From Candidatus Dormiibacterota bacterium (lineage in GTDB: Bacteria; Chloroflexota; Dormibacteria; Aeolococcales; Aeolococcaceae), in the NCBI GenBank assembly GCA_963823765.1, contig CAWGML010000002.1:92337-156336 (forward strand): DNA of 64,000 nucleotides, given 5' to 3'. Positions 7,401-64,000 of the stretch are shown here, one piece after another (position 1 is the stretch's first letter; every line of letters starts with the position of its first letter). The translations under genes were made by a program, and so were the position numbers. A model generated the notes under the pieces. That model saw only the letters and a program-made list of their open reading frames with translations. It was not told the origin of the DNA and did not search any database.

Positions 7401-8460
7401 GCGCACCGTCGCCAGCAGCTGCGCGAACGTGGGATCGCCGGCGAGGTCGACGCGGAGCACCAGCGGCGTCATGCAGTACCCGACCATCGTCTGCAGCTCG
7501 GAGCGATCGCGGAGATCACACAGGGTGCCGAAGACCACGTCATCCTGCCCCGAGTAGCGATGCATGAGCACCGCGAACGCTGACGCGATGGTGGCGAAGA
7601 GCGTGCCGCCTGAGTGGCGGCTCAGAGAGCGAAGCTCGCCCACCAGCTGTGCGTCGATCCGGATCGGCAGCATGGCGCCGCGAAAGCGCTGCACCGCCGG
7701 TCGCGGATGATCGAGCGGCAGGAGGAGCTGCGGTGCTCCGGTGAGACGCCGCCGCCAGTGGTCCATCCTGCCGGCAACACGGGTGGTGGCCACCGCGGTG
7801 CGCGTCCGCGCCGCGTAGTCGGAGTATTGAACCAACGGCTCCGGCAGCTGCGGAACAAGTCCCGCGTCGTACGCGTCGTACAGCGCGACAAGCTCCGGGA
7901 GGACGACCCGGTACAGGCTGATCCCATCGAAGATGAGGTGGTGCAGGGCGAGGCAGAGCCGGTGGCTGTCCGCGCCGAGGCGGATCAGAAGGGGGCGCAG
8001 CAGCGGGCCCTGGTCGAGCTGGTAGGGGCGACGCGCCTCACCAGCGGCCAGCAGCACCGCCTCGCGCTCGGCGTCTGCAGGCGCAAGCCCGCTCAGGTCG
8101 ATCAATGGCAGGTCGACCGGCTGCGCCGGGTGGACCACCTGCACGGGCTGGCCGTCAATGATGTCGAAGGTCGTGCGCCAGATCTCGTGGCGGTGGATCA
8201 ACTCGGAGAGCGCGGCGCGCAACGAGTTCGACCGAGAGGGGACCGTCCTTGGTGATCGTGACGAGCTCGTTGTACACGGGCTCGCCCGGGGCCAAGCGGC
8301 TGAGGTACCAGAGATGCTCCTGCGCCACCGAGAGCGGCGCTCGCGCGCCATCAGGCTCGGCGTGCGGGTGCAGCGCGGCACCGTCGCGTTCCCGGCGACC
8401 GCGAAGTCGCTCCTCCAGGAGGGCGCGCTTGGCCGGGGTCAGAACGCGCGTGTGATCCAC
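4426..8460 (-). CDS. Single-module non-ribosomal peptide synthetase C-A-PCP-TE, reading frame interrupted at 3 places (pseudogene or indel errors)
   Basis: 8155..8460 holds the starter C-domain N-terminus (LTPAKRALLEERLRG...PLSVAQEHLWYL). 6138..8381 continues the C domain (HHLIFDGIS) and adenylation A1-A5 (YTSGSTGRPKGV). 4934..6256 holds A6-A10 (YRTGDRARF, GRTDHQLKLRGFRVEPGEIE, LPDYMVP) and PCP (FFDVGGHSL). 4426..5172 is a thioesterase (GYSVGG). The protein continues seamlessly across frame junctions near 8215-8240, about 6250 and 5175-5230. The likely GTG start is near 8460, preceded by GGGAGG. Confidence 0.7.
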
Positions 8461-26362: not shown

Positions 26363-26384
26363 GATCGTCGAGTCTCCCATTTGT

Positions 26385-37270: not shown

Positions 37271-37273
37271 ATG

Positions 37274-38092: not shown

Positions 38093-38384
38093 CGCCTTAT
38101 GTCCCCCACTCATGCGTTCGCGTTCCGCAACTCTACCATGCTGGCGTGCACGACGCAATCGGTTTGTACGGTGCGTTCCTGACGGGCCAATTTCGGTTGC
38201 GGCATCGTGACCCGATGCGCATTGCGCTCACGAATCGAGAAGGGTACCCTTTCGGGACACGCGCGGTTTGACGCATTTGAATGATTGAAGCCGCCACCGG
38301 TCAGATTTTGGGGCTGTTGTATGCTCGCCGAGAGCACACGGCCAGTCCCGCGTGCCCGGGAGGGCTTGCAGCAGGGGGTCTCAC

Positions 38385-39482: not shown

Positions 39483-39509
39483 GCATCTCTCCGGTGTTGG
39501 GGCTTCCGC

Positions 39510-41470: not shown

Positions 41471-41494
41471 TCGTCCGCAGACATCCAAGAGGGG

Positions 41495-42457: not shown

Positions 42458-43411
42458 TCAGCAGCCCGGGCCGTCCACCGTCTGGCCCGAGATGGTGATG
42501 CCGTCGGACGGCTGCTTGACGATGCCGTGACCGCCGTGGCTGACCACGTTGGCGACGGTGATGTGGTGGGACGGCCCGGTGATGTACCACGGTTGCGCGC
42601 AGGTCTTGGCGAACGGTCCGGGAGTGAAGCTCTCGCCATCGAGCGTGACGTTCTCGTCCTCGAACAGGGCCAGGATGCCGCCGTGGATGGTGATGTTGGA
42701 GAGCGTGGCGTGGTTCTGGCAGTCGACGTCGACCGACGCGAAGCCGCCCGTGCCGGTGGTGGTCATGTCGATGTTGCGCAGCGTGGTGCCGCCGCGCTGG
42801 TAGCTGAAGCACGGCGACGGCCCGACGAAGCGCATCCCGAAGCCGCTGCCGGCCTCGCCGGTGACGTTGGTCACCGTGGTGTTGTTGGCGTTGCTGAAGA
42901 GCACTCCCGGCTTGGGCTGCTTGAGCACGGGCCCGCCGGGGTTGAAGGTGGCGGTGTCGAGGTTCATGTCGGACACGGTCACGTTGTCGGCGCTGATGTC
43001 GAAGATGTTGATGGCACCGTGCTGCACCAGGAAGGTCGAGGCGCTTCCCGCGCCGCGCACCGCGACGGGGCCGCCGACGACGATGTGGTTGCTCAGCACG
43101 CAGGTACCGGCGCCGATGGTCACCGTGCCACCACGGTCGACGGCGGCCTGCAGCGCGATGGTGACATCCGTGCTCCCGTCACAGCTGACGCTGCTGGCCA
43201 CGGTCGACGTGGGGGAGGGAGGGAACGTCGACAGCGTCGGCGCCGGTGACGCGGAGCCGCTGCGCGTCGGCATCGAGCTCGGGCTGCCGCAGCTCGCCAG
43301 CATGGCGAGTGCCAGGAGTGCCGGCCCCGTGCAGGCGAGCCGCCGCCTCAGCTGGCCCGTCCCCGGGAGCCGCGCGACCAGCGGCGCAGGTCGCTGCGCC
43401 GCCGGCCGCAC
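42458..43411 (-). CDS. Secreted/lipoprotein right-handed beta-helix protein
   Basis: Lipoprotein-type signal (RRRLACTGPALLALAMLASCGS, lipobox LASC), then beta-helix repeats rich in short N.T/G.V...I rungs. The start is uncertain (GTG near 43411). The listed ORF N-terminus is low-complexity. Confidence 0.5.
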   Translation of the reverse strand: MRPAAQRPAPLVARLPGTGQLRRRLACTGPALLALAMLASCGSPSSMPTRSGSASPAPTLSTFPPSPTSTVASSVSCDGSTDVTIALQAAVDRGGTVTIGAGTCVLSNHIVVGGPVAVRGAGSASTFLVQHGAINIFDISADNVTVSDMNLDTATFNPGGPVLKQPKPGVLFSNANNTTVTNVTGEAGSGFGMRFVGPSPCFSYQRGGTTLRNIDMTTTGTGGFASVDVDCQNHATLSNITIHGGILALFEDENVTLDGESFTPGPFAKTCAQPWYITGPSHHITVANVVSHGGHGIVKQPSDGITISGQTVDGPGC

Positions 43412-43425
43412 AGGCGTCCCATTGG

Positions 43426-44959
43426 CTACGGCGAGAACTGGATGGCGTCGGTGGCGCCACTCTGCGGACGGTGCAGCACGCTGGTGTAGGTGGAGTTCTG
43501 CACGGTGCCCTGCGCGATGATCTTGGGCGAGATGGTGATCCCGTCCAGGGAGCTGTTCTCGACGAGCAGGTTCTGCACGTCGCCGATCAGCAGCCTGAAG
43601 GTCGGGCCGCCGGTCATCTGCTCGTTGTCGATGGTGATGTCCTGGTTGACGCGCGCGTTGTCGGGGGCGGTCTTGATCTGGCCGCCCTCGCCAGAGGTGG
43701 TGAAGTTGGTGATGGTGAGGTTGTCGCACGGGGTGGACATCACGAAGCCGGCGGTGGCGCCGTGCGTGCCCGGCGTGTAGTTGTAGTTGGTGACGGTGGT
43801 GTTGGTGTCGGCATAGAGCGTGATCCGCGAGCCCGTGTGCTGCACGTTGCTGATCGAGGCGTTGTCCTGGAACGAGAAGCTCCAACCGTCGCCGGTGAAC
43901 CAGTCGTTGAGGATCACGTCGTTGACGACGTTGCCCTCGCTGTGCAGGCCGTTACCCGGGTGCGCGCTCGGCGGGCCGGGGTAGTAGATGCCGAAGGTGT
44001 TGGTGCCGCTGAGCACGCGGATGCGCTGCACCAGCGTGTAGTTGCCACCCACGCCGAGCCCGTGGCCGGCGTCGAAGGTCTGGGTGTCCAGCGTGAGGTC
44101 CTGGACCGTGGCGTGGTCACTGCGGACGCTGAGCAGGTCGTTCCTGCCGGTGCTCGTCTCCACCAGCGTGGTGCTGTCGCGGCCCGCGCCCGCGAACACG
44201 ATCGGCACGCTGCCGCCGATCTGGATGCTCGCCGGGGTGGCCGTGGCGAAGGTGTACGTGCCCGCGGGCACCCACACGATGCTGCCCGCCCCGCCGGCCT
44301 GGGCGGCGGCAATGGCGGACTGGAAGTTGCTGGCGTTGTCACCGGTGTCGTCGCCGTGGGCACCGTACGCGGTGACGTCGAAGATCGCGCTGAAGCGGGT
44401 CGAGCTGGTGCCCTTGCCCCACTTGTTGGAGACGACGATGGGCCCTGACTTCACCCCGGCGGGCACGGTGGCGGTGAGCTGGCTGTAGGAGTTGACCGTG
44501 AAGCCGGGGGCGGCAATGCCGCCGAAGCTCACCTGGGTGGCGCCGGTGAAGGCGCTGCCGTTGATGGTCACCGAGTTCGCCCGGCCTGCCGCTGGCCGGC
44601 GTGAAGCCGGTGACCGACGGTGTCACCTTGAAGAACTTGTTCTTGCTGGTGACGTTGCCCCCCGGGGTGTGCACGCTGATCGTCCCCCTCGAGGCGCCGT
44701 TCGGCACGGTGGCATCGATCTCGGTGTCGGAGACCACCGAGTACGTCGACGAGACCAAGCCCACGAGCACCGCGGTGGCGCCGGTGAACCCGGTGCCGCT
44801 GATCACCACGGCGGTGCCCACCGGTCCGCTGGTGGGCGAGAAGCCGGAGATGGTTGGACCAGCCGCCGCCACCGAGAGGGTCGAGCCGAACAGAGAGCCG
44901 CCCGCGACCGCGAGGACGGCACAGACCGTGACGAGCCGGCGCCAACGCAACTGATCCAC
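43426..44959 (-). CDS. Secreted tandem-IPT/TIG + right-handed beta-helix (Pectate_lyase_3-like) protein, paralog 1 (apparent frameshift near 44570)
   Basis: Signal peptide, then TIG repeats (PTISGFSPTSGPVGTAVVISGTGFTGATAV...; VTINGSAFTGATQVSFGG...). The beta-helix N-cap VTAYGAHGDDTGDNASNFQSAIAAAQAGGAGSIVWVPAGTYTF is diagnostic of the Pectate_lyase_3/GH28/GH55-like family. The protein continues from frame 44339..44959 into 43426..44571. Confidence 0.7.
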
Positions 44960-45167
44960 AGTGATCCCCCCTTACCGCCCTGTCGGTGCCGACAGGGTCC
45001 TATTCCAGATGCAGTGCGGAGCGTCCGACAGTCGCGCCAAACGCACCGATCCCTTCTCAGACCAGTCTAGAGAAAGGCTTCTTGAAAGTCCAGTTCCCCG
45101 TGTGAACCAGGCCTGGTTGGAGGCTGGGACGGCCGCGTTCCGCGAGGTCGCGGCCGTCCCTGTTGCC

Positions 45168-46565
45168 TCAGCCCCAGGCGTTCAGCGTCCCGTTGTCGGC
45201 GCCGAAGAACAGCATGTTGTCGGCAATGGCGGCAGACGAGTGGATCTTGCCGCCGACGTTGGTCGAGAAGACCAGCGCCCCGTCGCTGAGCCTGTAGCCG
45301 CGCTCACCGCCGTTGAGGTCTCCGACGAAGGCGAGCTGGTCGCCCGCGGCGCCGGAGATGGCCGGCGACGTGAGAATGGTGGCGGTGGCGGTGGCCGACC
45401 GCCAGGTCACGGCGCCCGTCGTGGCATTGAAGTCGTAGACGTAGCCCGCGTAACCCACCACGAGGTCGTTGCCCGTCAGCGCCGCGACTGAGACCGAGTT
45501 GGTCTTCATACCGGCGTCGAGGGACATGTCGAAGTTCCAGATCTGGGCGCCGGTCGCCAGGTCGAGCGCGTACTCGATCTTGTCCTTGCCGTCGATGTAC
45601 ACGACACCGTCCGCGAAGCCGTTGACGCCCGGTGCGCTGATGGTCGGACCCGCGCCGACGTCCTGGTCGCCACCGTTCTGGATGGTCTGGAAGCGCCACA
45701 TCTGGGCGCCGGTGGTGGCGTTGAGCGCGTACACGGAGTTGTCAGGGTTGCTGCTGCCGAAGACCAGCATCCAGGTGCCTGCGCTGTTCTGGACGAGGCC
45801 CGGCTCCGACCACGAGCCCGAGTTGAACCCGTGGGTGCCCTTGTTGGCGAAGCCGTTGAACACCCACTTGAGCTGGCAGCTGCCCGCTGTGTTGCCGATG
45901 CCGGTGACCGCCCACTCGTGCCCGGCGTTGTGCTTCTCGTTCTGACCCTCGTCGCCGAAGAAGACCACCGGGCCGGTGCCGTCGACGCGGCCGACGACCG
46001 GCGAGGCCTCGATCCGTCCGGGGACGGTCTGGGGCGACACGATCGGCAGGGAGAAGGAGCACTGGAAGGCGCCGGTGGTGGCGTTCAGCGCGTAGAGGAT
46101 CCCGTCGGTGCCGGCGAAGTAGATCGTGTTGCCGTCGATCGCGGGCGACGACACGAAGGCGCCGGGCGTGTACTGCACGCTCCAGATGGTGGCGCCGGTG
46201 GCCGCGTCGAATGCATGCACCTGGCCGAGGACGCTGACGTCGTACACGACGGTCTTCTGCAACGTGGCGTTGAAGACCACCGCCGGTGATGCGTACACGG
46301 ACGCCTTGCCCTGGCTGCCGCCGCCCACCAGCTGCGACCACTTCTTGGTCAGGCCTGAGGCCGTCGAGGCGCCGATGGCGGTGTCCGGCGACACGCCGCT
46401 GTGCGTCGCGTTGCCGTGGAACATCGTCCAGTCATCCCCGGTCGTCGCGCGCGCGCTGCTCGGCACCACCGCCATGGCGATCGAGGCGGCCACGGCCACA
46501 CCCAACAGCAGTGGGCGATGGACGCGCCCGGTCGCCCACGTCAAGGCACGGTTGTTGACGATCAT
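45168..46565 (-). CDS. Secreted PQQ-like beta-propeller repeat protein
   Basis: Signal peptide followed by repeated (V/I)YALNATTGA..W / AFDAATGATIWS motifs. About 8 repeats of about 40 aa, typical of PQQ/BamB-like propellers. Confidence 0.7.
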   Translation of the reverse strand: MIVNNRALTWATGRVHRPLLLGVAVAASIAMAVVPSSARATTGDDWTMFHGNATHSGVSPDTAIGASTASGLTKKWSQLVGGGSQGKASVYASPAVVFNATLQKTVVYDVSVLGQVHAFDAATGATIWSVQYTPGAFVSSPAIDGNTIYFAGTDGILYALNATTGAFQCSFSLPIVSPQTVPGRIEASPVVGRVDGTGPVVFFGDEGQNEKHNAGHEWAVTGIGNTAGSCQLKWVFNGFANKGTHGFNSGSWSEPGLVQNSAGTWMLVFGSSNPDNSVYALNATTGAQMWRFQTIQNGGDQDVGAGPTISAPGVNGFADGVVYIDGKDKIEYALDLATGAQIWNFDMSLDAGMKTNSVSVAALTGNDLVVGYAGYVYDFNATTGAVTWRSATATATILTSPAISGAAGDQLAFVGDLNGGERGYRLSDGALVFSTNVGGKIHSSAAIADNMLFFGADNGTLNAWG

Positions 46566-46883
46566 TGACCCCCCTCCCGATTGTCCACGCGTGTTTCTGT
46601 CGAACTGATGGGATGCGACACGCCGGTGTCATTGGCGGGAGCCGTTTCAGCTTCCCGCAGCCCTTCCCAGCTGCAGGTTACGGGGTGGGCCACTACGTGT
46701 CAAGTCAAGCAATCACGTCTAACGTGCTATGACGCCGGGGTAACGGCTCGGCAAACACGCGTTCGCATCGTGACCTGGCTATTGTGCGGACTTCTCTGAC
46801 GTCGATCTGACACTGCGTTACGCAGCGGATACATACATACGATCCGGCGGATTGGATCGGCGTACCACTGCGACCGTGGCGAC

Positions 46884-48173
46884 ATGAACTTCCACCCCCG
46901 TCGACTGACCCTCGTCACCCTCGTCTCCGGCGCCGTGCTCCTGTCCGGCAGCACCTCCAGCGCCGTGCTGACGTCGTCACGCTCGGGTGTGGCGACCGCG
47001 CCACGACACCTGGCGGTGTCGGACAGCCTGACCACAGCGCCAACGAGCGGAGCCACACCCGACGCCACCGCAGCCCCGACCGCGGTCCCGTCAACTCAGG
47101 GCCCCGGGCTGGCGGTCAACCCCTCCACGCAGTCCCCGGCCCAGCTGCGTGCCCAGCAGGCCACATGGCGGCCCCAGCTCAACGTCACCGAGCTCTCGGT
47201 CAGCGCGGCTCACCTCAACCTCGTGCTCTTCGGGGAGCCGACAATCGCGGCCGACGGTTCGATGGGCACCAACATCGGCGGCACCTGGCACTCGGTCGGG
47301 GCACAGCGAGACGTCACCAACCACTTCCTCGGCGCGCTGGCCACGGACAACGCGGCGGACCTCAGCCGGGCCATGGCCGCGCTCGAGTACACCTTCGCGC
47401 ACCAGAACGCCGACGGCTCGTGGCCTCAGGTGGACATCCCCGGCTCGCCCTACTCGCCCGGCGGGGGCTTCATGAGCACCATCTTCTTCTACGCCTCGCT
47501 GGGACGCTCGCTGGGCCTGGCCGCGGACTCCCACTGGTTCCAGACCAGCGCTGCAACCGCCGCTCTGCGCGCCCGTCTGGCGGCCCTCGCTCCGGGGATG
47601 GAGCGCGGCCTCGCCTGGATGCGCGGCCCCGTCAACAGCCAGCAGATGCAGAACATGGGCAAGGGCTCGCAGAGAGACAGCAACCGCGCGGCCGCCGGGG
47701 CCGAGGGGTTCCTCCTGGTGGGCCAGTGGCTCCACAGTGCCGCGGACGTGGCGACCGGCCAGCGCCTGCTGCTCCAGGTCGAGAGCAACCAGCTGCCCGA
47801 CGGCACCATCCTGGAGTCGGGGGGCTTCGACGCCGGCTACCAGACGGTGTCGCTGAACCACCTGTACGACATCTGGTTCCACCTCACCGGCTCCCTCGCG
47901 GGTCTGCGCGGTGGTGTCTGGAACGAGCTGGCCAAGGGCACGGCCAAGGAGAACAGCGTCGTGCTGCCCTCAGGCGAGATCAACTTCGACGGCAGCACCC
48001 GCGTCGACTGCGGTGGGGAGACCTTCCACGGCCAGCCCAAGCAGGGCAGCGGGCAGGACCTCTCCCGGGTGGAGGTGTACACCGCGGGCGTCACCGCGAA
48101 CGGCTCGCTGCTCGCCATGGCGGCGCGGATCATCAACTACTACAACACCCACACCCACTCGCACTGCGTCTAG
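46884..48173 (+). CDS. Secreted hypothetical protein (paralog of 55053..56234)
   Basis: Signal peptide with a Thr/Pro-rich linker. Conserved blocks are shared with 55053..56234: AAHLNLVLF/AAHLAMVIH, GSMGTNIGGTWHSVGAQR/GSIGTNHSGWHSLGFQR, ALEYTFAHQNADGSW/ALEYSYQHQNPDGSF, FGAEGFLL.G.WL, LPDGTILE.GGFD.GYQ.VSL.NL, CGGE.F.G..KQG.G. Function unknown. Confidence 0.7.
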   Translation: MNFHPRRLTLVTLVSGAVLLSGSTSSAVLTSSRSGVATAPRHLAVSDSLTTAPTSGATPDATAAPTAVPSTQGPGLAVNPSTQSPAQLRAQQATWRPQLNVTELSVSAAHLNLVLFGEPTIAADGSMGTNIGGTWHSVGAQRDVTNHFLGALATDNAADLSRAMAALEYTFAHQNADGSWPQVDIPGSPYSPGGGFMSTIFFYASLGRSLGLAADSHWFQTSAATAALRARLAALAPGMERGLAWMRGPVNSQQMQNMGKGSQRDSNRAAAGAEGFLLVGQWLHSAADVATGQRLLLQVESNQLPDGTILESGGFDAGYQTVSLNHLYDIWFHLTGSLAGLRGGVWNELAKGTAKENSVVLPSGEINFDGSTRVDCGGETFHGQPKQGSGQDLSRVEVYTAGVTANGSLLAMAARIINYYNTHTHSHCV

Positions 48174-48187
48174 CCGGCGACCGCGAG

Positions 48188-48221
48188 GAAGAGGGCCCGC
48201 GCGAAACCGCGGGTCCTCTTC
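48188..48221. terminator. Hairpin between convergent genes
   Basis: GAAGAGGGCCCGCG-loop-CGCGGGTCCTCTTC is an imperfect 14-bp stem in the 54-nt gap between 46884..48173 (+) and 48228..49776 (-). Confidence 0.4.
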
Positions 48222-48227
48222 GCTGCG

Positions 48228-49776
48228 CTAGGAGAAGGTGATCGCGTCGGTGGCGCCGCGCTGCGGGCGGTGCACCACCTTGGTGTAGGTCGTCGATGTC
48301 ACCGTGCCCTGGGCGATGTTCTTCGGCGAGATGACGATCTGGTCGAGCGAGCTGTTCTCCACGAGCAGGTTCTGGACGTCGCCGATGAGCAGCCGGAACG
48401 TGCCGCCTCCGGTCATCCGCTCGCCGTTGATGGTGATGCTCTGGTTGACCCGCGCCATGTCAGGCGCGTTGTTGATCTGGCCGCCCTGGCCGGAGCTCAC
48501 GAAGTTGGTGATCGTGATGTGGTCGCAGGGGGTTGAGATCACCCAGCCGGCCGTGCCTCCGAAGCTGCCCGGCGTGTACGTGTAGTTGGTCACGGTCACG
48601 AAGCTGTCGGCGTACAGCGAGATGCGCGAGCCGGTGTGCTGCACGTTGCTGATCGAGCCGTTCTTCTGGAAGGAGAAGCTGAACCCGTCACTCTTGAGGT
48701 GGTCGTTGAGGATGACGTCGTTGATGACGTTGTTGGTGTCGTACTGGCCATCGCCGGGATGGGCCCCGGGCGGGCCGGGGTAGTAGATGCCGAATGTCCT
48801 GGTGCCCGAGATCACCCGGACGCGCTGCACCGTGGTGTTGCTGCCGCCGTCGCCGATGCCGTGGCCGCCGGAGTGGGTCTGGGTGTCGAAGGTGAGGTCC
48901 TCCACCGTCACGCCGTCGCAGTGGTTGCTGAAGAGGTCCTTCTTCAGTGTCAGCTCGACCAGAGCTGGTGCTGTCGCGGCCGGCGCCCGCGAACGTGATC
49001 GGCACAGTGCCACCGATCTGGATGCTGGCCGGGGCGGCGGTGGAGAAGGTGTAGGTGCCGGCGGGCACGTACACGATCCCGCCTCCCGCACCCTGCGCGG
49101 CGGCGATGGCCGACTTGAACGCGGCCGCATTGTCACCGCTGCCGTCGCCGTGCGCACCGTATGCGGTCACCGCGAAGACCTGTCCCACCGTGAAGCTCGA
49201 CGAGCTGGCTCCCTTGCCGCCCTTGGTCGACACGACGATCGGCCCGCTGCTCGCTCCCGCGGGCACGGTGGTCGTGATCTTGCTGTAGGAGTTCACCGTG
49301 AAGGGCGCGGAGACGCCGTTGAAGGTGACCTTGAGCACCTTGACGAAGGCGCTCCCCGTGAGGGTGACGCTGGTCCCGGCCGGGCCGAACTTCGGTGTGT
49401 AGTCCGTGACCGTCGGGGACACCTTGAACTTCTTGCTGCTCGCGGCGTTGCCGCCAGGTGCGCTCACCACGATCAACGCCGTGGTGGCACCGAAAGGCAC
49501 TGTGGCGGTGATCTGGGTGTTGGAGTTGACCGTGTAGCTGGCGTGCACGTTGTGGAAGGTGACCGCCGTGGCCCCGGTGAACCCGCTTCCTGTGATCGTG
49601 ACCGAGGTACCCACCGGTCCCGACCCCGGCGAGAAGCCGGTGATGGTGGGACCCGACGCGAAGCCGCGCACGCTCGACGCGAGCAGCGAGCCGCTCACCA
49701 CCACCAGCACGGCGGCGGCTGTCACCAACCGCCGCCACTGACTCCGTTGCCTGTTCAAGCTCCCATCCCTCCTCAT
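48228..49776 (-). CDS. Secreted tandem-IPT/TIG + beta-helix protein, paralog 2 (apparent frameshift near 48950)
   Basis: Signal peptide, then two or three TIG domains (PTITGFSPGSGPVGTSVTITGSGFTGATAVTF; PTVTDYTPKFGPAGTSVTLTGSAF). The beta-helix N-cap is AVTAYGAHGDGSGDNAAAFKSAIAAAQGAGGGIVYVPAGTYTF. It continues in frame 48228..49157 (LTFDTQTHSGGHGIGDGG...), which is collinear with paralog 3. Confidence 0.7.
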
Positions 49777-49788
49777 GTCGGCGAGAGC

Positions 49789-51321
49789 CTAGGGCGAGAA
49801 GGTGATGGCATCGGTCGCGCCACTCTGGGGACGGTGCATCACGCTCGTGTACGTGGAGTTCTGCACTGTGCCCTGCGCGATGTTCCTCGGCGAGATGATG
49901 ATCTCGTCCAAGGTGCTGTTGTCGACGAGCAGGTTCTGCACGTCCCCGATCAGCAGCCTGAAGCTAGGGCCGCCGGTCATCACCTCGTTCCTGATGGTGA
50001 TGTTCTGGTTGACGCGAGCCGGGGTCGGCGCCGTCTTGATCTGGCCGCCCTCGCCGGCGGTGGTGAAGTTGGTGATGGTGACGTTGACGCAGGGCGTCGA
50101 CATCACGAAGCCGGCGGTGGCCCCGTGGGTGCCGGGCGTGTAGTTGTAGTTGGTGATGGTGGTGTTGGTGTCCGCGTAGATGGTGATCCGCGAGCCGGTG
50201 TGCTGCACGTTGCTGATCGAGGCGTTGTCCTGGAAGGAGAAGCTCCAGCCGTCACCGGTGAACTCGTCGTTGAGGATGAGGTCGTTGACGACGTTGCCCT
50301 CGCTGTGCAGGCCGTTGCCGGGGTGCGCGCCGGGCGGGCCTGAGTAGTAGATGCCGAAGGTGTGGGTGCCGGAGATCACCCGGATGCGCTGCACCAGCGT
50401 GTGGTTGCCACCGATGCCGAGGCCGTGGCCTCCGTTGAACGTCTGGGTGTCGAGAGTGAGGTCCTGCACGGTGACGCCGTCGGTGCGGACGCTGAGCAGG
50501 TCCTTCCTGCCGCTGGTCGTCTCGACCAGCGTGGTGTTGTCGCGGCCCGCCCCGGCGAACACGATCGGCACGGTGCCATTGATCTGGATGCTCGCGGGTG
50601 TGGCGTTGGCGAAGTAGTAGGTGCCGGACGGCACGAAGACGGTGCTGCCCGCCCCGGCGGCCTCGGCGTCTGCGATGGCCGACTGGAAGTTGGCCGTGTT
50701 GTCACCGGTGCTGTCGCCGTGGGCGCCGTAGGCGGTGACGTCGAACTCCTCGCTGAAGTTGGTCGAGCTGGTGCCCGGCCCCCACTTCGTGGTCACTGTG
50801 ATCGGCCCCGTGGTGTCGCCCGCCGGGACGGTGGCGGTGATCTGGCTGTAGGAGTCCACCGTGAAGGTGGTCGTCGGCACGCCGTTGAAGGCGACCTGGG
50901 TGGCGCCCGTGAACGCGCTCCCGCTGATGGTCACCGTGTCCCCCGCCTTGCCGGTCCCGGGGGTGAAGCCGGTGACCGCCGGGGTCACCTTGAAGAACTT
51001 GTGCGTGCTGGTGACGTTGCCGCCAGGGGTGTGGATGCTGATCGTGCCCCTCGAAGCACCGAACGGGACGGTGGCGTCGATCTCGGTGTCCGACGCCACG
51101 GTGAAGCTCGCCGCCACCAGGTGGAACTTGACGCTGGTCGCGCCGGTGAAGCCGGTCCCGGTGATGGTCACGGGGGTGCCTACCGGTCCGCTGGTGGGGG
51201 AGAAGCCGGAGATGGTCGGCCCTGACGCGGCCACCGACAGTGTCGAGCCGAACAGGGAGCCACCAGCCACGGCGACGATTGCGCAGGTGGTGACAAGCCG
51301 ACGCCAATGGATGTGATGCAA
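49789..51321 (-). CDS. Secreted tandem-IPT/TIG + beta-helix protein, paralog 3 (intact)
   Basis: 510-aa intact ORF with a signal peptide, two TIG domains and a beta-helix. It is about 85-90% identical in long stretches to paralog 1 (DVTAYGAHGDSTGDNTANFQSAIADAEAAGAGSTVFVPSGTYYF). It lies 12 nt upstream of paralog 2. Confidence 0.85.
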   Translation of the reverse strand: MHHIHWRRLVTTCAIVAVAGGSLFGSTLSVAASGPTISGFSPTSGPVGTPVTITGTGFTGATSVKFHLVAASFTVASDTEIDATVPFGASRGTISIHTPGGNVTSTHKFFKVTPAVTGFTPGTGKAGDTVTISGSAFTGATQVAFNGVPTTTFTVDSYSQITATVPAGDTTGPITVTTKWGPGTSSTNFSEEFDVTAYGAHGDSTGDNTANFQSAIADAEAAGAGSTVFVPSGTYYFANATPASIQINGTVPIVFAGAGRDNTTLVETTSGRKDLLSVRTDGVTVQDLTLDTQTFNGGHGLGIGGNHTLVQRIRVISGTHTFGIYYSGPPGAHPGNGLHSEGNVVNDLILNDEFTGDGWSFSFQDNASISNVQHTGSRITIYADTNTTITNYNYTPGTHGATAGFVMSTPCVNVTITNFTTAGEGGQIKTAPTPARVNQNITIRNEVMTGGPSFRLLIGDVQNLLVDNSTLDEIIISPRNIAQGTVQNSTYTSVMHRPQSGATDAITFSP

Positions 51322-51627
51322 AGCGGATCCCCCTCTCCTGTCCCGGGCGCTCAGCCGCGCCCACCTCGGTTGCCTTCCTCATGGAGTGCCGAACCGGCCT
51401 GCGCGCGCCAGTTCTCCCCCCGTAGGCGTGAGTTCTAGAGAACTGTCCTCCCAAAGTCCAGCCGCACCCCAACGTGCTGGCATCTCTTTACAGTTCTTTC
51501 CCACTGCACCAGTGACAGTCGGCGTGCGCACTCGACCGTCCCGGTTACCGTGTACAACTGCACCTCCACGAACGCGCCGGTGTAGGATCCGCCGTGGAGA
51601 GGGGTAAAGAAAGGGGGGGATCATTGG

Positions 51628-53504
51628 TGGCTCACGAGGCCGCGACGCATCGACGCGCGCTCGAGCCGGACCGGTCACGGACCAGGCGGCGACCTCGATG
51701 GCGTCGGCCGGTGCTCAGCGGTGCGCTGTTCCTCCTCGTGGTCGGCTCCGTGCAGGCGGCGACATCAGCGAAGACCTCGATCCAGGCCACAGCCGCGACC
51801 TCCCCGATCAAGCACGTCGTCGTGCTGATGGAGGAGAACCACTCGTTCGACAACTACTTCGGCACCTACCCCGGCGCCAACGGCATCCCTGCAGGCGCCT
51901 GCATCCCCGACCCGGCGGCGGGGCACTGCATCGCGCCGTACCACAACCCGGCCGGCTTCGTCGACGATCTGCCGCACGTCTACCCCGCTGTCATCGACGA
52001 CCTCGATGGGGGCAAGATGGACGGGTTCGTGAAGGTGCTGCAGCACGCCTGCCAGTGTTCGCGGACGGACGCCGCCGGGTACTCCGACGCGACTGACATC
52101 CCCAACTTCTGGCAGTACGCGCAGAACTACACACTGATGGACAACCTCTTCGAGCAGGTGCCGTCGTGGAGCTTCCCGTCGCACGTCGCCATGGTTTCCG
52201 AGTTCACCGGTTCATGCACCTCGCCGACAGACCCGCTGACCTGCACGAGCTCGCCGCGGATGGGCTTCCCCGGCTGGGACACGTGGCCCGCGCCCAGCAA
52301 GACACTGCCCTGGACGGACATGACGTACATCCTGCACAAGCAGGGGATCAGCTGGGGCTACTTCAACGCGGACCAGACCGAGCCCGTCTGCTTCTCCAAC
52401 GCGTGCACGATGACCCGCACCAGCGCGGGAACGCCGATCTGGCAGAACCCCCTCCCGTGGTTCACGGATGTCCAGCAGGATGGACAGCTGGCCAACATCT
52501 CCACGCAGAGCACGTTCTTCAGCGATGTCGCCTCCGACAACCTGCCGTCAGTGTCCTGGCTGATTCCCAACCGGCTGCAGAGCGGGCATCCCGGCACGGG
52601 GACAAACCCCGGCAGCGAGCAGTTCGTCGTCCATGCCATCAACGCAATCGAGTCGAGCCCCGAGTGGTCGAGCACGGCGATCATCCTGGCGTGGGACGAC
52701 TTCGGCGGTGAGTACGACCACGTGGTGCCGCCCAACCTGAGCAGCCTTGCCTACGGCGCCCGCATTCCCGGGATCCTGATCAGCCCCTACGCCAAGAAGG
52801 GCTACATCGACCACCAGACGCTGTCGATCGATTCCTTCAACAGGTTCATCGAGGACACCTTCCTCGGCGGTCAGCGCCTCGACCCGAGCAACGACGGCCG
52901 CCCCGATTCGCGGCCATCGGTGCGCGAGAACGACCCCATCCTGGGCGACCTGAGCCAGGATCTCGACTTCACCCAGCCGCCGTCGCGACCGATGCTGTTA
53001 CCGGAGGTCTCGGTGCCCGACAAGCTCGTACCGGGGCACCAGGTGACCGTGACCGGCACCAACTTCAGGCCGGGCCACCCGGTCGACATCAGGTTCAACT
53101 GTGGAGCGCCGAGCTGCACGGGGGCAATCGACGAGGGGACGGTGACGGCGACCGGCAACGGGTCGTTCTCCACCACCTTCACCGCTCCGACCACCATGCC
53201 GGCCGGCTACTACTTCGTCAGCGGCGCGGGAGCCGACCCACTGACCTGGTTCGGCGTACACTCCGACCCGGCTCACCAACTCCAAGGGACAGGCGCCGCC
53301 GCTGCCGGACAACCCAGCCGTACCGGACGACTGAGCCGGCCACCGGGAAGCCGGTGGCGTGCCCTCTCCCCGGTGGGTCGCCAGTGTCAGGTCGGGTCGT
53401 TCAGGTCCGCCAGGTCCACCTGGCGCATCGCCGGCGTCACCGCCGTCTGGCTCAACTTCACCGGCCTGCGCGGTGCTTGCGTGAAGTTGAAGCTGCCGGT
53501 GTAG
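51628..53504 (+). CDS. Phosphoesterase family protein (PF04185; phospholipase C / AcpA acid phosphatase family), type A paralog 1
   Basis: The N-terminal family signature [28 protein letters not shown] comes after a basic signal region (RRRPRWRRPVLSGALFLLV). The start is GTG/TTG near 51625-51628, preceded by AAGGGGGGG. The C-terminal extra domain has FRPGHPVDIRFNCGAPSCTG. The last about 40 aa overlap the convergent gene and may reflect a missed stop. Confidence 0.75.
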
Positions 53505-54935
53505 TTGTAGGCGCTGGCGTCCCAGGTGGAGGTCGTGATCGGCGGCAGGCCGAACGCCCACTCGGTGAAGGCGAGCACGGAGGCGAACTGCGCCGGGTTC
53601 GAGTCGGTGTGTCCGGCGATCGTGTACGGGCTGACGATGATCATGGGCACCCGGATCCCCTGGCCCGTGGGGGGCGCGACGTGGTCGTAGAAGCAGCCGC
53701 AATCGTCCCAGCTGATGAAGATCGCCGTCGATGACCACTCGGGGCTGTTCTCGATCGCGGTCACCGTGGAGCTGATCCAGTTGTCGCCGACGGTCATCGA
53801 GTCGCCGTTGTGCTGCGAGTCCGTCTGGGTGGGCGTGACCAGCGAGAAGTTCGGCAGCTGGCCGGCCGCGGCGTCGGTGCTGAACTGGCTGTTGGAGGGA
53901 TGCTGAGAGACTGGCTTGTTCAGGCACTCGGCAAAGGTGGGACAGGTCGCCCAGCCGTAGCCGGTGGTGTTGCCGCTGCTCTCGCCCTGGCCACCGTTGC
54001 TGCCGCCGGGAGGTCCGCCGTACATCTTCCAGGTGAGGTTGGCGGCGTCGAGGCTGTCCATGATCGTGGGCACGTAGGGCACATCCGAGGGGCGGTAGGC
54101 ACCGCCATTGGTGATCACCGTCCCGGTCGGCGAGGTGGTGCCGTTGAGGGCCGGGTCCGGGAATGCAGGCCGGCTCCGTGGCCTGGTGCCCGTTGCTGGG
54201 GTTCTTCCAGGTGGTGTCCCGGCCGGAGTCGCAGCCCCACCCGTTGCCGAGGAGGCCGAGGGTGCCGGGATGCGGGGTGCCGCCGCCGGTGAAGCCGTCC
54301 ATCGTCCCCGCCACCGCTCCGAGGTGCATGCCCCACGAGGCCAGCGGCCCATCGCTGAACGTGCGGTCAGAGACGGCGAAGTCGTTGGCGAGCGTGAGGA
54401 CGTTCTTGATCGCCGTCTGGCCGGGCGTGTACTGGGTGTAGCACTTGTAGTTGTCCTTGGCGGTGCAGCCCTGGAGCGTCGAGTACCCGTCCATGAGCCC
54501 GCCGTCGATGGCATTGGTCTGGCCCTGGCCCGAGTGGATCACCTGGACGATCTTGTCCTTGGCCTTGGTCAGAGGGATCGAACCGACTCCTTTGACGTTC
54601 CCGGTGGTGGCGCCGTCACAGCGGGCGGTCTGCACACACCAGGCGCCGAGCACGTTGTCGAATGAGTGGTTCTCCTGGAGGATGAACACCACGTGCTGGA
54701 TCGGCGATTGGAACCCGGAGCTGCGCGCGGGGGTGGCGGGGGAGTTGGCCACGGCTGCCCCGGCCACGCCGACGGCGACGACCCCGATCACGGCGCGGCG
54801 CCGCGCCCGGCTCCCCGAGGTGCGCCGCTGGCGACGCGGAAACGCGGATTTCAAGTTCAAGTTGCCCCCTTCGAGTGTCCTCACCCCGGTCTGGTCAGAC
54901 GAGACCGGCGCCTTCCCTCCGACACAGGATGCCAC
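53387..54935 (-). CDS. Phosphoesterase family protein (PF04185), type B paralog 1 (apparent frameshift near 54150)
   Basis: Signal peptide, then IQHVVFILQENHSFDNVLGAWCVQTARCDG. The C-terminal part continues in frame 53387..54514 (PNFSLVTPTQTDSQHNGDSMTVGDNW...[16 protein letters not shown]...IIVSPY). It is collinear with 58921..60352. Confidence 0.7.
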
Positions 54936-55052
54936 AAACGCCAGTACAGAGCAATAACGTCAAGCGCATCAGCCCGACTCTCACCGCCCTCTCAGGCGAG
55001 AGGACCGGGCCGCGCTCGTATCCTGCGGTGGTGACCCTCATGGCGCTCTCGC

Positions 55053-56234
55053 ATGCTGCGGACTAGACGGAGCCGGTGGCTCCTCGCCGCCGCCCTCCTC
55101 GCCGTCTTCGTGCTGTCCGGGGGCGTCGGCGCGCTGGTGGCGCGCGAGACGGCACCGCCGACCGCGTCGCGCTCCTCATCCTCGTCGTCGAACGGCGCCG
55201 CGGGCGCCCCGCTGGCCACCGTGCCGGCGCCCGCTGTGAACGGCGCCTCCGAGCTCAGCATCGCCGCGGCGCACCTCGCCATGGTCATCCACAGCACGTT
55301 CAAGATCAATCCAGACGGGTCGATCGGCACCAACCACAGCGGCTGGCACAGCCTGGGTTTCCAGCGACCCTTCGGCAACGACGCGGAGATGGCCCTGATC
55401 AAGCAGGATCCCCAGGCCCTGTCGCTGGCGGTCACGGCCCTCGAGTACAGCTACCAGCACCAGAACCCCGATGGGTCGTTCCAGGTCACCCAGGTGCCCG
55501 GCGCCGCATACCAGCTGAACACCGACCCGGTGGTCGGCGTGGTCTTCTGGTACGGCGACCTCGGTCATGTGCTGCAGCTGCTGACCGACTTGCAGTGGTA
55601 CCAGGCCAGCCCGGAGACCGCGGCGATCCGGGCGCGCGTCGACGCGCTGCGCTCCAAGATCGCACTGACGTTGCGGTGGCTGTCCGCGCCAACGCAGCTG
55701 AAGGTCGTGCAGAACACCGGCAACCAGGACACCAACCGCGCCACCTTCGGCGCCGAGGGATTCCTCCTCACCGGCGAGTGGCTCAACGACCCCGCAGTCA
55801 TCGCCATCGGCACCGGGCTGCTGCAGAAGGCCGAGGCCAACCTGCGGCCCGACGGCACCATCCTCGAGAAGGGTGGCTTCGACAGTGGCTACCAGTCGGT
55901 GTCGCTCGACAACCTGCTCCACATCTACATGCACCTCAACGGCACCCTGGCGTCGCTCAAGCCCGCGCTCTGGACCATGATCAACAAGGGGATGTCCCGC
56001 GAGAAGCAGGCGATCGCGCCGACCGGCCAGCTGTCGCACGCCAACAACTCGCGCACCTACTGTGGCGGGGAATCCTTCCGCGGCAAGCAGAAGCAGGGCG
56101 GCGGTAACGCGGTGGTGCGCGACCTCGTGTTCTACTCCGGCCTCACCAACGATGCATCGCTGGTCAGCACCGCCAACTCGGTGGTGAAGTTCTACGCCAG
56201 CAACCCCCACAACCTCTGCGCACTTCCGCAATGA
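55053..56234 (+). CDS. Secreted hypothetical protein (paralog of 46884..48173)
   Basis: Signal peptide MLRTRRSRWLLAAALLAVFVLSGGVGA and a Ser-rich linker, with conserved blocks as listed for 46884..48173. Confidence 0.7.
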   Translation: MLRTRRSRWLLAAALLAVFVLSGGVGALVARETAPPTASRSSSSSSNGAAGAPLATVPAPAVNGASELSIAAAHLAMVIHSTFKINPDGSIGTNHSGWHSLGFQRPFGNDAEMALIKQDPQALSLAVTALEYSYQHQNPDGSFQVTQVPGAAYQLNTDPVVGVVFWYGDLGHVLQLLTDLQWYQASPETAAIRARVDALRSKIALTLRWLSAPTQLKVVQNTGNQDTNRATFGAEGFLLTGEWLNDPAVIAIGTGLLQKAEANLRPDGTILEKGGFDSGYQSVSLDNLLHIYMHLNGTLASLKPALWTMINKGMSREKQAIAPTGQLSHANNSRTYCGGESFRGKQKQGGGNAVVRDLVFYSGLTNDASLVSTANSVVKFYASNPHNLCALPQ

Positions 56235-56250
56235 CGGACGCCCACCCCGC

Positions 56251-57490
56251 GTGAGCGCCCCGCCGCCGGCGCCACCACCGCCGACGGCCCCCGAGCGTCG
56301 CTGGCCCGTCTACATCGTGGCCATGGCGCTGGTGGTGATCGCGGCCCTGGTCGTGGTGCTCGTCGTCCATCCCTTCGGATCGACGCGGCCGGCCGGTCCC
56401 GGCAGCGGGTTGGCGGCGGTGACCACCCCCGTCTCGGCCTTCCCCTCGATGAACCCGCCGGCGCCACCCTCGGACGCGTTCAACGTGGTGCGCTACGGCG
56501 CCGACCCTTCGGGCCACCACGACTCGACCGTGGCCATCCGCGCCGCCATCACCAGGGCGTCAGCCTCGCCGGGGAAGACGGTGTACTTCCCCGCGGGGTC
56601 GTACCTGCTCGACCTCAACGACGGGGCCCAGACCGACTTCCAGCTCACCGGGGCCAACGCCCCCAACATCCTCGGGGCGGGGAGGGACTCCACGCTGGTC
56701 GTCGAACGCGTCGGCACCACCGCGTACCCCGGCCTCGCCAAGCCGAAGACGGTCTTCAGGCTCACCAACGTCACCGCCACCGTCTTCGCCGGCCTGACCG
56801 TCGACGCGCAGAGGTACAACGCCGGCGACGCGCTCGACGATTCCGGCGACAACACCACCATCGAGGCCTCCCGCTTCCTCGGGGCGACCAACCGCAACAC
56901 GTTCACGCTCCGCGTCATCGCCGTCTGCAACCAGTCACCGACGCACCATCTCTACGGCATTCACCGCAGCAACAACACCGTCAGGGACGTGATCCTCAGC
57001 GGCCGCGGCACGGGCGGCAACGACGACCTCGACTTCTCCTGCCAGTGGAACGGCACCATCTCGGACATCACGGACGTCGGGCTGGGGAACCGCCCTCTAC
57101 ATCGACAAGGACGTCACCATCACCAACTTCAAGTACACACCGGGAACGGTGGAGAAGAGTCCCAAGGGGTGGTTCATCACCGACTCCTCCGGCATCCACA
57201 TCACCAACTTCACGACCTCCGGCGCGGGCGGGATCATCAGGAACCCCAACTACCAGACCACCAACGTCACCATCGACCACGAGGTCATGACCAAGCCCGG
57301 GTTCTTCTTGGCCATCGGCGACGCCGCCAACGTGACGATCACGAACAGCACGCTCACCGGCCTGCGCATCGAGCCGTACAAGGCAACGACAGCGCTGACG
57401 GTGACGTCGTCGTCCGTGGCCACGACCGTGTGCGCGCCGCAGGCGAGCGCGGTGGTCTCCGGGCTGGCCGGGGTGCGCTGTGGTGGCTGA
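56251..57490 (+). CDS. Membrane-anchored right-handed beta-helix protein (Pectate_lyase_3-like), apparent frameshift near 57095
   Basis: Pro-rich N-terminus plus a TM ([20 protein letters not shown]). The beta-helix N-cap is [42 protein letters not shown]. It continues in frame 57149..57490 ([31 protein letters not shown]...). Confidence 0.65.
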
Positions 57491-58907: not shown

Positions 58908-58920
58908 CGCCGGCCCCGGC

Positions 58921-60422: not shown

Positions 60423-64000
<3,578 letters not shown>

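Follow-up and report, generated by a model that had tools for sequence, protein, structure and literature searches.

A rare family of exported beta-helix proteins encoded beside sulfated-glycan genes in uncultured soil bacteria

Five paralogous right-handed beta-helix genes (A, B, E, F, and J) lie at positions 42458-57490 of the window, the whole 64-kb stretch of DNA analyzed here. We put at about one in two the probability that they encode extracytoplasmic carbohydrate-active proteins, in a clade with an ancestral role bound up with a cluster for building and exporting a sulfated glycan or glycoconjugate. What is new is the gene context: this beta-helix family stands beside the same sulfated-glycan genes in several uncultured soil bacteria. 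The genes belong to a rare, uncharacterized clade and probably encode glycan-processing enzymes of the neighboring cluster. The features of the window that bear on this reading are the following.

25388-26626, minus strand: sulfotransferase, conserved cluster
26385-30302, minus strand: 1305-aa protein with ~11 TM helices and TPR repeats, conserved cluster
30269-31759, minus strand: protein with ~10 TM helices, conserved cluster
31829 to ~32800, minus strand: sulfotransferase, conserved cluster
32788-35112, minus strand: GT2-GT4, conserved cluster
34781-37048, minus strand: 755-aa GT4 (GT4-755), conserved cluster
38289-39482, plus strand: HlyD-type adaptor of the exporter, partner block upstream of A
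39510-40241, plus strand: ABC ATPase of the exporter, partner block upstream of A
40238-41470, plus strand: MacB/FtsX permease of the exporter, partner block upstream of A
41495-42457, plus strand: PF13469 sulfotransferase, end of the partner block directly upstream of A
42458-43411, minus strand: gene A, divergent beta-helix lipoprotein, short at ~317 aa; lipobox MLASC
43426-44959, minus strand: gene B, beta-helix protein with signal peptide and two TIG domains; 510 aa after frame correction
45168-46565, minus strand: secreted PQQ-like beta-propeller, 465 aa (PF13360, 89.5 bits)
46884-48173, plus strand: gene D, secreted all-alpha toroid-like protein, paralog of I
48228-49776, minus strand: gene E, beta-helix protein with signal peptide and two TIG domains; 515 aa after frame correction
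49789-51321, minus strand: gene F, uninterrupted copy used as reference, 510 aa; signal peptide, TIG domains at 36-112 and 115-190, beta-helix at 193-510
51594-53504, plus strand: gene G, secreted PF04185 phosphoesterase (212 bits) with C-terminal Ig-like tail
53387-54935, minus strand: gene H, PF04185 phosphoesterase, +1 insertion at ~54164
55053-56234, plus strand: gene I, paralog of D (39% identity)
56251-57490, plus strand: gene J, beta-helix with N-terminal membrane helix anchor and no TIG; 412 aa once corrected
57480-58907, plus strand: gene K, PF04185 phosphoesterase lipoprotein (230 bits)
58904-60352, minus strand: gene L, PF04185 phosphoesterase, +1 insertion at ~59206
62380-63999, minus strand: fused ATP-sulfurylase/APS-kinase (PAPS supply), frameshifted in the kinase domain and running off the window

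The sulfation and glycan genes of the window comprise three PF13469 sulfotransferases, the PAPS synthase, at least five glycosyltransferases, and the HlyD/ABC/MacB exporter. The fused ATP-sulfurylase/APS-kinase also lies at the edge of L001, a syntenic metagenome contig that is 89% identical to the window. The sulfated-glycan island proposed in the initial annotation is supported by these genes and by conserved gene context in relatives. In 12 related loci (L001, L002, L005, L006, L007, L008, L010/L011, L013, L014, L015, L016, and L017), as in the window, a beta-helix gene lies within 10 kb of orthologs of the window's MacB/ABC/HlyD, sulfotransferase, GT4-755, GT2-GT4, 10-TM, or 11-TM+TPR genes. 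The recurring neighbors are an HlyD/ABC/MacB exporter, two to four PF13469 sulfotransferases, a GT4, a GT2-GT4, and two large membrane proteins. Orthologs of the exporter and sulfotransferase block adjoin beta-helix genes in L001, L002, L005-L008, L013, L014, and L017; orthologs of the 25388-37048 cluster (50-67% identity) share loci with a beta-helix gene in L005-L008, L015-L017, and L010, and in four of these (L005, L007, L015, and L016) the beta-helix gene is directly upstream of GT4-755. The family and cluster occur together in metagenome contigs and in MAGs labeled Dormibacteraeota, Actinomycetes, Acidimicrobiaceae, and Candidatus Angelobacter; cluster genes were not seen in the available flanks of family members at L003, L004, L009, and L012. 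On this genomic context, co-location at 12 loci and in the window would place the family, by function and not by homology, among cluster-encoded extracellular glycan-processing enzymes. The cluster product could be a glycolipid or protein glycan instead of a polysaccharide.

Membership of the family was assessed against Pfam PF12708 (Pect-lyase_RHGA_epim, formerly Pectate_lyase_3), whose gathering threshold is 27 bits. Genes B, E, F, and J exceed it (33.1, 39.5, 38.2, and 52.4 bits, respectively), and all 29 members of alignment A1 match this profile. Gene A falls under the cut-off (PF12708, 16.8 bits; PF13229, 23 bits), lacks the last coils of the helix, and is tied to the family solely by tblastn and by 27-30% pairwise identity to B, E, F, and J. 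The initial annotation located the five genes correctly, but the N-cap it ascribed to all of them is degenerate in A, which has no YGA. Its tandem array is in fact interleaved with a PQQ-type propeller, the two all-alpha proteins D and I, and four PF04185 phosphoesterases, of which K is an extra copy with no counterpart in L001. Nor are B, E, and F near-identical, as had been stated: B and F share 80% protein and 84% DNA identity, E is 65-67% identical to either (a range of 65-80% for the three proteins), and the longest exact DNA match between paralogs is 38 nt. J and A are about 34% and 28% identical to the others. An exhaustive profile search recovered ~143 cluster representatives at E <= 1e-30 among 1.84 billion, and Pfam, NCBIfam, and PDB-sequence searches yield PF12708 and N-cap matches only. 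Some homologs are labeled "polygalacturonase" by JGI.

By inspection, all five products carry export signals: Sec signal peptides in B, E, and F, a membrane anchor in J, and a lipobox in A (MLASC), which the 91% identical L001 ortholog retains as LLAGC. A-type copies are present in L010 as well. Together with the Pfam matches, these signals agree with the earlier description of secreted PF12708-type beta-helix proteins bearing TIG domains, although of the "two or three" such domains proposed for B, E, and F, only two were recovered. The AF2 model of F (pLDDT 90.2, pTM 0.83) contains two beta-sandwiches, at 36-112 and 115-190, and TIG (PF01833) scores 65.3 bits over two stretches in E; neither the model nor these stretches includes a third. 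For B and F, the only TIG match of the Pfam scan was PF20144 (TIG_SUH), under its cut-off, while the precomputed Pfam annotation of P0001, identical to F, lists PF01833. With respect to L001 orthologs, B, E, F, and J show dN/dS values of 0.16-0.20, reflecting purifying selection.

Conserved polar residues within the helix suggest an active site, on the evidence of the family alignment. In F numbering these are D291, N343, D357, Q364, H374, R378, Y382, D384, and E446, most of which fall in one coil, residues 357-384. Across 129 family representatives, Q364 is conserved in 98%, N343 in 94%, E446 in 81%, D357 in 80%, R378 in 74%, D384 in 69%, and H374 in 60%, and position 291 is D or N in 128 of 129. 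N343, with recurring xxN positions, may form a structural Asn ladder. The set is incomplete in genes A and J; in the J sub-clade, D358/D360/D374/G378 replace G/S/H/R.

The predicted structure resembles a range of known beta-helix proteins. Foldseek matches of probability 1.0 include beta-helix enzymes with anionic polymers as substrates (the AlgE4/AlgE6 epimerases, the alginate epimerase/lyase 8ja4, the RbmB lyase, and GH28), as well as GH87; the structural matches, at 10-16% identity and TM about 0.3-0.5, also include phage tailspikes and, as the one adhesin alongside epimerases, lyases, and hydrolases, PfbA. The family shares with the PF12708 superfamily the fold and the N-cap YGAxGDGxxDNT...A...GG.V.VPAGTY, but sequence similarity to solved proteins ends after this ~80-residue N-cap, and a helix-body profile (F residues 272-510) matched no solved protein in the PDB (best E 0.25).

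The five genes contain no catalytic triad of a known family, nor the signature motifs of GH28, AlgE/AlgG, or PL1. For GH28, we take the signature to be the ordered series NTD, (G/Q)DD, G(H/S)G, and RIK. NTD and RIK are found in none of the five genes, the sole GDD is that of B's N-cap, and GHG at 298 stands ahead of any acidic pair, out of GH28 order; NCBIfam rhamnogalacturonidase matches cover only the N-cap, at 16-22 bits against cut-offs of 500-800 bits. The family resembles GH28 in its fold, its N-cap, and these weak matches, and assignment to GH28 was rejected. AlgE4/AlgE6 and 8ja4 are the best PDB matches (fold E 5e-9, TM 0.53 on the target; N-cap sequence E 5e-11), and as secreted proteins that modify an anionic polymer after export they offer a parallel to the role proposed here. 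An AlgE/AlgG-type epimerase was nevertheless rejected: the catalytic motif, presumably of YG(F/I)DPH(D/E) type, is missing (DPH[DE] in none of the five genes or 129 family members), the profile match to AlgE4/AlgE6 is limited to query residues 193-273, and the likeness of fold is generic. Identity is 14-16%, and the family has neither Ca-binding R-modules nor an alginate context. A PL1 pectate lyase was likewise rejected, as W[IV]DH, corresponding to what we take to be the PL1 signature segment vWiDH, occurs in none of 129 members; of the Pfam families taken to mark PL1 (PF00544 or PF03211), PF03211 matches one of 29 A1 members, at E 0.31.

Parallels are also found in genomic setting. Vibrio RbmB, a beta-helix protein among the fold matches (13-14% identity), is encoded inside an exopolysaccharide cluster. 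[quoted passage not shown] The cluster in the window has an HlyD/ABC/MacB pump and unannotated multi-TM proteins instead of recognizable Wzx, Wzy, and Wzz.

The family's fold, export signals, purifying selection, rarity, and conserved synteny are observations; catalysis, the substrate, and a stalk role for TIG are inferred. Taken as a pathway, the cluster would operate as follows. Cytoplasmic GT4 and GT2 transferases, together with PAPS-dependent sulfotransferases, would assemble a sulfated oligosaccharide, to be exported by the multi-TM proteins or the HlyD/ABC/MacB pump. Outside the cell, the beta-helix proteins may bind the chain lengthwise and cleave or alter it by glycanase, lyase, or epimerase chemistry, with the catalytic work falling to D291, D357, Q364, H374, R378, Y382, D384, and E446. 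The TIG pair in B, E, and F may act as a stalk or spacer; J, with its membrane anchor and Asp-rich site variant, and A, as a truncated lipoprotein, could be specialized or degenerate relatives. In this lineage the family has expanded to five copies and is accompanied by PF04185 phosphoesterases, the PQQ-type propeller, and lyase-like all-alpha proteins, a combination that looks like a surface toolkit for remodeling or turning over an anionic polymer. The all-alpha proteins weakly resemble, by predicted structure, uronate-polysaccharide lyases and GH88: gene D has no Pfam or NCBIfam match and belongs to a very rare family (8 clusters in 5.8 billion proteins), and Foldseek weakly matches its confident AF2 core (E 2e-3 to 3e-2) to PL5, PL38, PL8, and PL17 lyases and to GH88. 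The L001 ortholog of gene I is 92% identical.

It is possible, if unlikely, that the beta-helix proteins are instead non-catalytic surface lectins or adhesins, or structural envelope proteins, with the helix as a binding platform and the TIG domains as a stalk. The pneumococcal adhesin PfbA and the TIG-containing SGBP-B of Bacteroides would be analogs; PfbA is found at ranks 10, 12, and 24 of the PDB fold matches, and by Foldseek the TIG pair of F matches both the IPT domains of plexin/MET and the glycan-binding SGBP-B proteins. The missing catalytic motifs and the incomplete polar sets of A and J are consistent with such a role, and five copies with varied anchors (secreted, membrane helix, and lipid) would fit a surface coat. 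However, a near-invariant Q364 that shares a single coil with conserved Asp, Glu, His, Arg, and Tyr in 129 divergent members is more like an active site than a binding platform, and enzymes make up most of the top fold matches. The refuting condition set in the initial annotation, a lack of catalytic residues together with adhesins alone as best structural matches, thus gives an ambiguous answer between enzyme and lectin. Moreover, extracytoplasmic proteins encoded within glycan-synthesis clusters are usually processing enzymes.

An equally minor share of our confidence goes to the view that these are depolymerases of foreign polysaccharides, scavenging nutrients or phosphate in soil with PF04185, PQQ, and D/I proteins, so that adjacency to glycan genes would be functionally meaningless. 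Degradative enzyme families often expand to several copies, and the TIG module is common to the PQQ propeller, phosphoesterase, and D-like enzyme families, with TIG-PQQ fusions existing in relatives. The PQQ propeller is co-located with the beta-helix family in L001, L009, and L012, and at L009 and L012 TIG-bearing copies accompany PQQ, PF04185, and D-like genes with no sulfotransferase or glycosyltransferase visible. Against this, the single-copy, TIG-less form stays between sulfotransferases and GT4-755 in the distant loci L005, L007, L015, and L016, with no PF04185, PQQ, or D genes nearby, and in the window we saw no sugar importer, no regulator, and no further glycoside hydrolase of the kind that marks utilization loci.

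As the sequence stands, B, E, and J are each interrupted, and the coordinates that the initial annotation gave run across two reading frames without saying so. Relative to L001, each has a single-base +1 insertion: at ~44577 in B (coding strand GAC to GAAC), at ~48963 in E, and at ~57081 in J (GG to GGG). The 3' end of gene G is probably a read-through from a net +1 indel at ~53260, its L001 ortholog being 540 aa. It is improbable that B, E, and J, with the phosphoesterases H and L, are true pseudogenes, redundant paralogs decaying after expansion while F, A, K, and G remain working. The deposited assembly does contain the frameshifts, and its gene calls are fragments (P0008, 381 aa; P0123, 261 aa), and within the 23 kb comparable with L001 all six shifts are confined to two expanded families. 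Yet every shift is a +1 insertion, with no deletion or nonsense mutation in that span, and B, E, J, and H each read through without a stop when one base is taken out (one stop codon is left in L after correction). Selection does not appear relaxed past the shift: dN/dS is 0.16 on both sides in B, 0.22 upstream and 0.12 downstream in E, and 0.17 and 0.11 downstream in J and H, like intact genes. The L001 orthologs are all intact, and unrelated genes are split as well, in the adenylation domain of an NRPS and the APS-kinase domain of the PAPS synthase. Assembly error is thus the most likely source of the frameshifts in B, E, and J, and all five genes are probably functional.

The likeness to phage tailspikes or depolymerases drawn in the initial annotation does not hold up, and an origin of these genes in a prophage remnant is highly improbable: many BFVD beta-helix tail proteins match (Foldseek E down to 1e-10) and PHROG tail-spike families match the N-cap, but the shared features are confined to the generic fold and a 45-70-residue N-cap, no phage genes, integrase, or tRNA occur in the 64-kb window, G+C is even across it, chromosomal synteny is kept across lineages, and the proteins carry Sec, lipoprotein, or membrane-anchor signals, with no trimer or particle-binding module identified, in place of a particle-binding N-terminus.

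The extracytoplasmic glycan-processing reading has a further extension, which we advance tentatively and regard as rather doubtful: that the family is the first of a new class of carbohydrate-active enzyme with a beta-helix fold, acting as lyase, epimerase, or hydrolase and specific for a sulfated heteroglycan. The cluster making that glycan, with its sulfotransferases, glycosyltransferases, and MacB-type exporter, would be one not described before. Sulfated extracellular glycans among bacteria are usually seen as a cyanobacterial specialty. The cluster is common to uncultured soil lineages labeled Dormibacteraeota, Acidimicrobiaceae, and others; if this extension is correct, sulfated extracellular glycans would be widespread in soil bacteria, each with its own remodeling enzymes.

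The window, whose G+C content is even at about 68–70% over its full length, carries five related beta-helix genes between 42458 and 57490, as the initial annotation had proposed. Four of them (B, E, F and J) exceed the 27-bit Pfam threshold of PF12708 (Pect-lyase_RHGA_epim), and gene A falls below it at 16.8 bits. These genes and some of those lying between them are:

42458..43411 (-): gene A, a short, divergent lipoprotein
43426..44959 (-): gene B, signal peptide, two TIG domains and beta-helix
45168..46565: PQQ-type propeller
46884..48173 (+): D, unannotated
48228..49776 (-): gene E, signal peptide, two TIG domains and beta-helix
49789..51321 (-): gene F, of the B/E architecture, intact, 510 aa
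55053..56234 (+): I, unannotated, a second copy of the D type
56251..57490 (+): gene J, N-terminal membrane anchor and beta-helix, without TIG

Inspection of the N-termini finds Sec-type signal peptides in B, E and F, a single hydrophobic helix in J, and a lipobox (MLASC) in A, an orthologue of which has LLAGC. The AlphaFold2 model of F (pLDDT 90.2, pTM 0.83) consists of two Ig-like sandwiches (36-112 and 115-190) followed by the beta-helix (193-510), and Pfam matches TIG to two separate stretches of E; the TIG domains reported for B, E and F are therefore present, at two each rather than two or three. Their description as near-identical copies is an overstatement, since B and F share 80% identity, E shares 65-67% with either, and the longest exact DNA match among the three is 38 nt. 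J (approximately 34%) and A (approximately 28%) are more distant still. The five genes are clustered as a tandem array would be, but are interleaved with the PQQ propeller, D and I, and four PF04185 phosphoesterases (G, H, K and L). One of these, K (57480-58907, +), is a lipoprotein and an extra paralogue that lies precisely between J and L and has no counterpart in L001, a 187-kb JGI metagenome contig that is otherwise collinear.

The D/I family is represented by only 8 clusters in 5.8 billion proteins, and has no Pfam or NCBIfam match. Its members are secreted, share the motifs HQNxDGSW and DGTILExGGFDxGYQ, and are modelled as an all-alpha, toroid-like domain, whose PDB matches are weak (E 2e-3 to 3e-2) and mostly involve uronate-polysaccharide lyases (PL5 Smlt1473, PL38, PL8 and PL17), along with GH88. 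On this thin evidence, the lyase likeness would fit an anionic-polymer locus, and D/I could be a new lyase family. Relatives also carry TIG domains in fusion with PQQ propellers and with PF04185 phosphoesterases (locus L009, 5568-7442; proteins P0063, P0097, P0088 and P0120); TIG therefore seems to be a stalk or anchor that an entire group of secreted enzymes shares in these lineages. A 721-aa ORF at 60423-62588 (-), with neither a Pfam or NCBIfam match nor a predicted TM helix, is conserved beside the phosphoesterase and PAPS-synthase genes, at 75% identity in L001 and 60% in L009.

Much of the remaining window is consistent with the sulfated-glycan island originally suggested, with three sulfotransferases, glycosyltransferases, an exporter and a PAPS synthase:

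25388-26626: sulfotransferase, upstream of A
31829 to ~32800 (-): sulfotransferase (PF13469, 28.5 bits; P-loop GTARSGTSW)
38289-42457: HlyD adaptor, ABC ATPase and MacB/FtsX permease, then a PF13469 sulfotransferase, upstream of A
62380-63999 (-): fused ATP-sulfurylase/APS-kinase (PAPS synthase)

The sulfotransferase at 31829-32800 is concealed in a longer, 641-aa ORF that overlaps a GT2-GT4 gene. Also upstream of A are a 755-aa GT4 glycosyltransferase (GT4-755), the GT2-GT4 gene and two membrane proteins, one with approximately 10 TM helices and the other, of 1305 aa, with approximately 11 TM helices and TPR repeats; the membrane parts of both lack a Pfam match. Further genes upstream of A encode a Ser/Thr kinase, a response regulator, a formyltransferase, a GT2 and two GT87/PMT-like enzymes. 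The latter, adjacent polytopic GT-C glycosyltransferases at 17737-20125 (-), upstream of the cluster and near the other four, may belong to the same glycan pathway. The secreted protein at 37274-38227 (-) has no Pfam match and is conserved in Dormibacteraeota loci (44-45% identity); its C-terminus (LSPTG, a hydrophobic helix, then RRTK) resembles a sortase sorting signal, which would suggest a monoderm envelope. A promoter and terminator scan returned background levels.

The association between this cluster and the beta-helix genes extends well beyond the window. Loci were retrieved through the beta-helix family, with a metagenome scan using the 29-member family alignment (A1) contributing seven, and were searched by tblastn with the cluster proteins. 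The same partners adjoin a beta-helix gene in MAGs titled Candidatus Dormibacteraeota (L005, L007), uncultured Actinomycetes (L006), Candidatus Angelobacter (L008) and Acidimicrobiaceae (L002), and in metagenome contigs L010/L011, L013, L014, L015, L016 and L017. The cluster at 25388-42457 is kept at 50-70% protein identity in L005, L006, L007, L008, L015 and L017, under titles naming different phyla, and holds two to four PF13469 sulfotransferases; L015 has four, with an APS-kinase fragment. In L005, L007, L015 and L016, a single TIG-less gene like F is flanked immediately by a sulfotransferase on one side and the orthologue of GT4-755 on the other. The available flanks of L003, L004, L009 and L012 contain no cluster genes, and in L009 and L012 the beta-helix genes are accompanied instead by PQQ, PF04185 and D-like genes. 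Tandem expansion is recurrent rather than peculiar to the window, as L010 (3208-15362) carries seven beta-helix genes in approximately 12 kb; three are A-type and four F-type, TIG being present in three of the latter. The literature searched contains no description of this partnership, in which beta-helix genes accompany a cluster of sulfotransferases, glycosyltransferases and MacB in several uncultured lineages from soil.

The beta-helix proteins themselves resemble known proteins chiefly at their N-termini. A 29-homologue profile matched solved proteins only over the approximately 80-residue N-cap, with AlgE-type mannuronan epimerases best (E 5e-11), followed by GH55, GH28, GH87, GH82 and GH110; a profile of the helix body alone (F 272-510) found no match in the PDB (best E 0.25). 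Across the 29 family members Pfam returned only PF12708 and TIG at E <= 1, and NCBIfam only sub-threshold N-cap matches. GH28 enzymes are recognized by NTD, DD and RIK motifs, AlgE/AlgG by DPHD/E and PL1 by WiDH. The beta-helix family differs from all three in that none of these signatures was found. Foldseek of the F model yields generic beta-helix matches at 10-16% identity, among them AlgE4/AlgE6, the alginate epimerase/lyase 8ja4, GH87, RbmB lyase and GH28, but also the adhesin PfbA and phage tail proteins; its TIG pair resembles plexin/MET IPT domains and Bacteroides SGBP-B. The likeness to phage tailspikes or depolymerases that had been raised, and with it a phage origin, is not supported, as PHROG matches are restricted to the N-cap and the phage fold matches are generic. 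The family is rare: a word-indexed search of 5.8 billion proteins recovered 49 clusters, bearing only automatic names such as "polygalacturonase", and 143 representatives out of 1.84 billion reached E <= 1e-30 in an exhaustive profile search. No paper on the family or its gene cluster was found, nor any linking Dormibacterota with sulfotransferases; the mention of a "beta-helix" in the synechan paper is an unrelated cupin annotation. The fold and N-cap are thus already known, and it is the helix body and its conserved residues that are without description in the literature searched.

These residues were counted over 129 family representatives in the numbering of F. The most conserved are Q364 (98%), N343 (94%), E446 (81%), D357 (80%), R378 (74%), D384 (69%) and H374 (60%), along with D291 (D or N) and Y382 (Y or F), each so in 128 of the 129. 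A single coil, 357-384 (DGWSFSFQ...HTGSR..YAD), holds most of the conserved polar residues. All of them are retained in B, E and F. J falls in a sub-clade with D358, D360, D374 and G378 instead, and A is truncated and divergent. Some of the conserved residues may form a structural Asn ladder.

B, E and J are each spread over two reading frames. L001 is collinear with window positions 39770-62717 at 83-89% DNA identity, and all its orthologues are intact. Alignment to it locates uncompensated +1 single-base insertions at ~44577 (B), 48963 (E), 54164 (H), 57081 (J) and 59206 (L), and a net +1 near 53260 in G. It is possible that the shifts mark real, very recent pseudogenes. However, deleting one base restores a stop-free frame in B, E, J and H, and dN/dS against L001 does not rise downstream of the shifts (0.11-0.17, versus 0.16-0.22 upstream; intact F 0.20, PQQ 0.19, D 0.17). 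Genes unrelated to the array are hit as well. One NRPS adenylation domain falls into two parts, on ORFs 6138..8438 and 4934..6256 (-), which cover AMP-binding profile positions 2-255 and 258-384 in Pfam, and the APS-kinase domain of the PAPS synthase ends at profile position 90 of 152. The frameshifts are therefore most probably assembly errors, and the NRPS and APS-kinase cases point to an assembly-wide indel error rate of about one in every 5 kb. At 1.72 Mb, the source contig would be consistent with a long-read MAG. An explanation by phase variation or by programmed frameshifting is rejected, given these unrelated genes and the mixed insertion contexts (two GG-to-GGG, one A-to-AA, two outside homopolymers). 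Three of the five beta-helix genes are thus broken only by probable assembly errors, and their annotation as pseudogenes would be unwarranted.

The best-supported reading is that these genes encode a rare, uncharacterised clade of extracytoplasmic, carbohydrate-active beta-helix proteins, a conserved part of a cluster for synthesis and export of a sulfated glycan or glycoconjugate. In the window lineage, the family would have expanded to five copies, three of which would have acquired a two-TIG stalk. A putative catalytic role, in which the proteins cut or modify the exported polymer, is favoured on four grounds: fold neighbours that are rich in enzymes, a conserved polar set confined to a small region, purifying selection, and the known occurrence of processing enzymes inside polysaccharide clusters, as in a sulfotransferase-containing cluster of Actinoplanes (PMC13390465). 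It is possible that the proteins are instead non-catalytic and serve in binding, or that they scavenge foreign polymers. A remote possibility, suggested by the O-mannosylation of eukaryotic IPT domains, is that a GT-C/TPR protein glycosyltransferase modifies the TIG proteins, but TIG is missing from the beta-helix genes of the conserved core cluster.

What makes these observations interesting is mainly the association at cluster level. Sulfated polysaccharides are prized as biomaterials, and the beta-helix protein, dedicated and so far unclassifiable, is the cluster's only obvious extracellular processing component; if catalytic, the family would qualify as a candidate for a new CAZy family and could serve to cut or edit sulfated glycans. 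Among bacteria, sulfated polysaccharides have been stated to be exclusive to cyanobacteria (PMC13390465); the window locus, together with its relatives, suggests that abundant uncultured soil bacteria have a conserved sulfated-glycan route.
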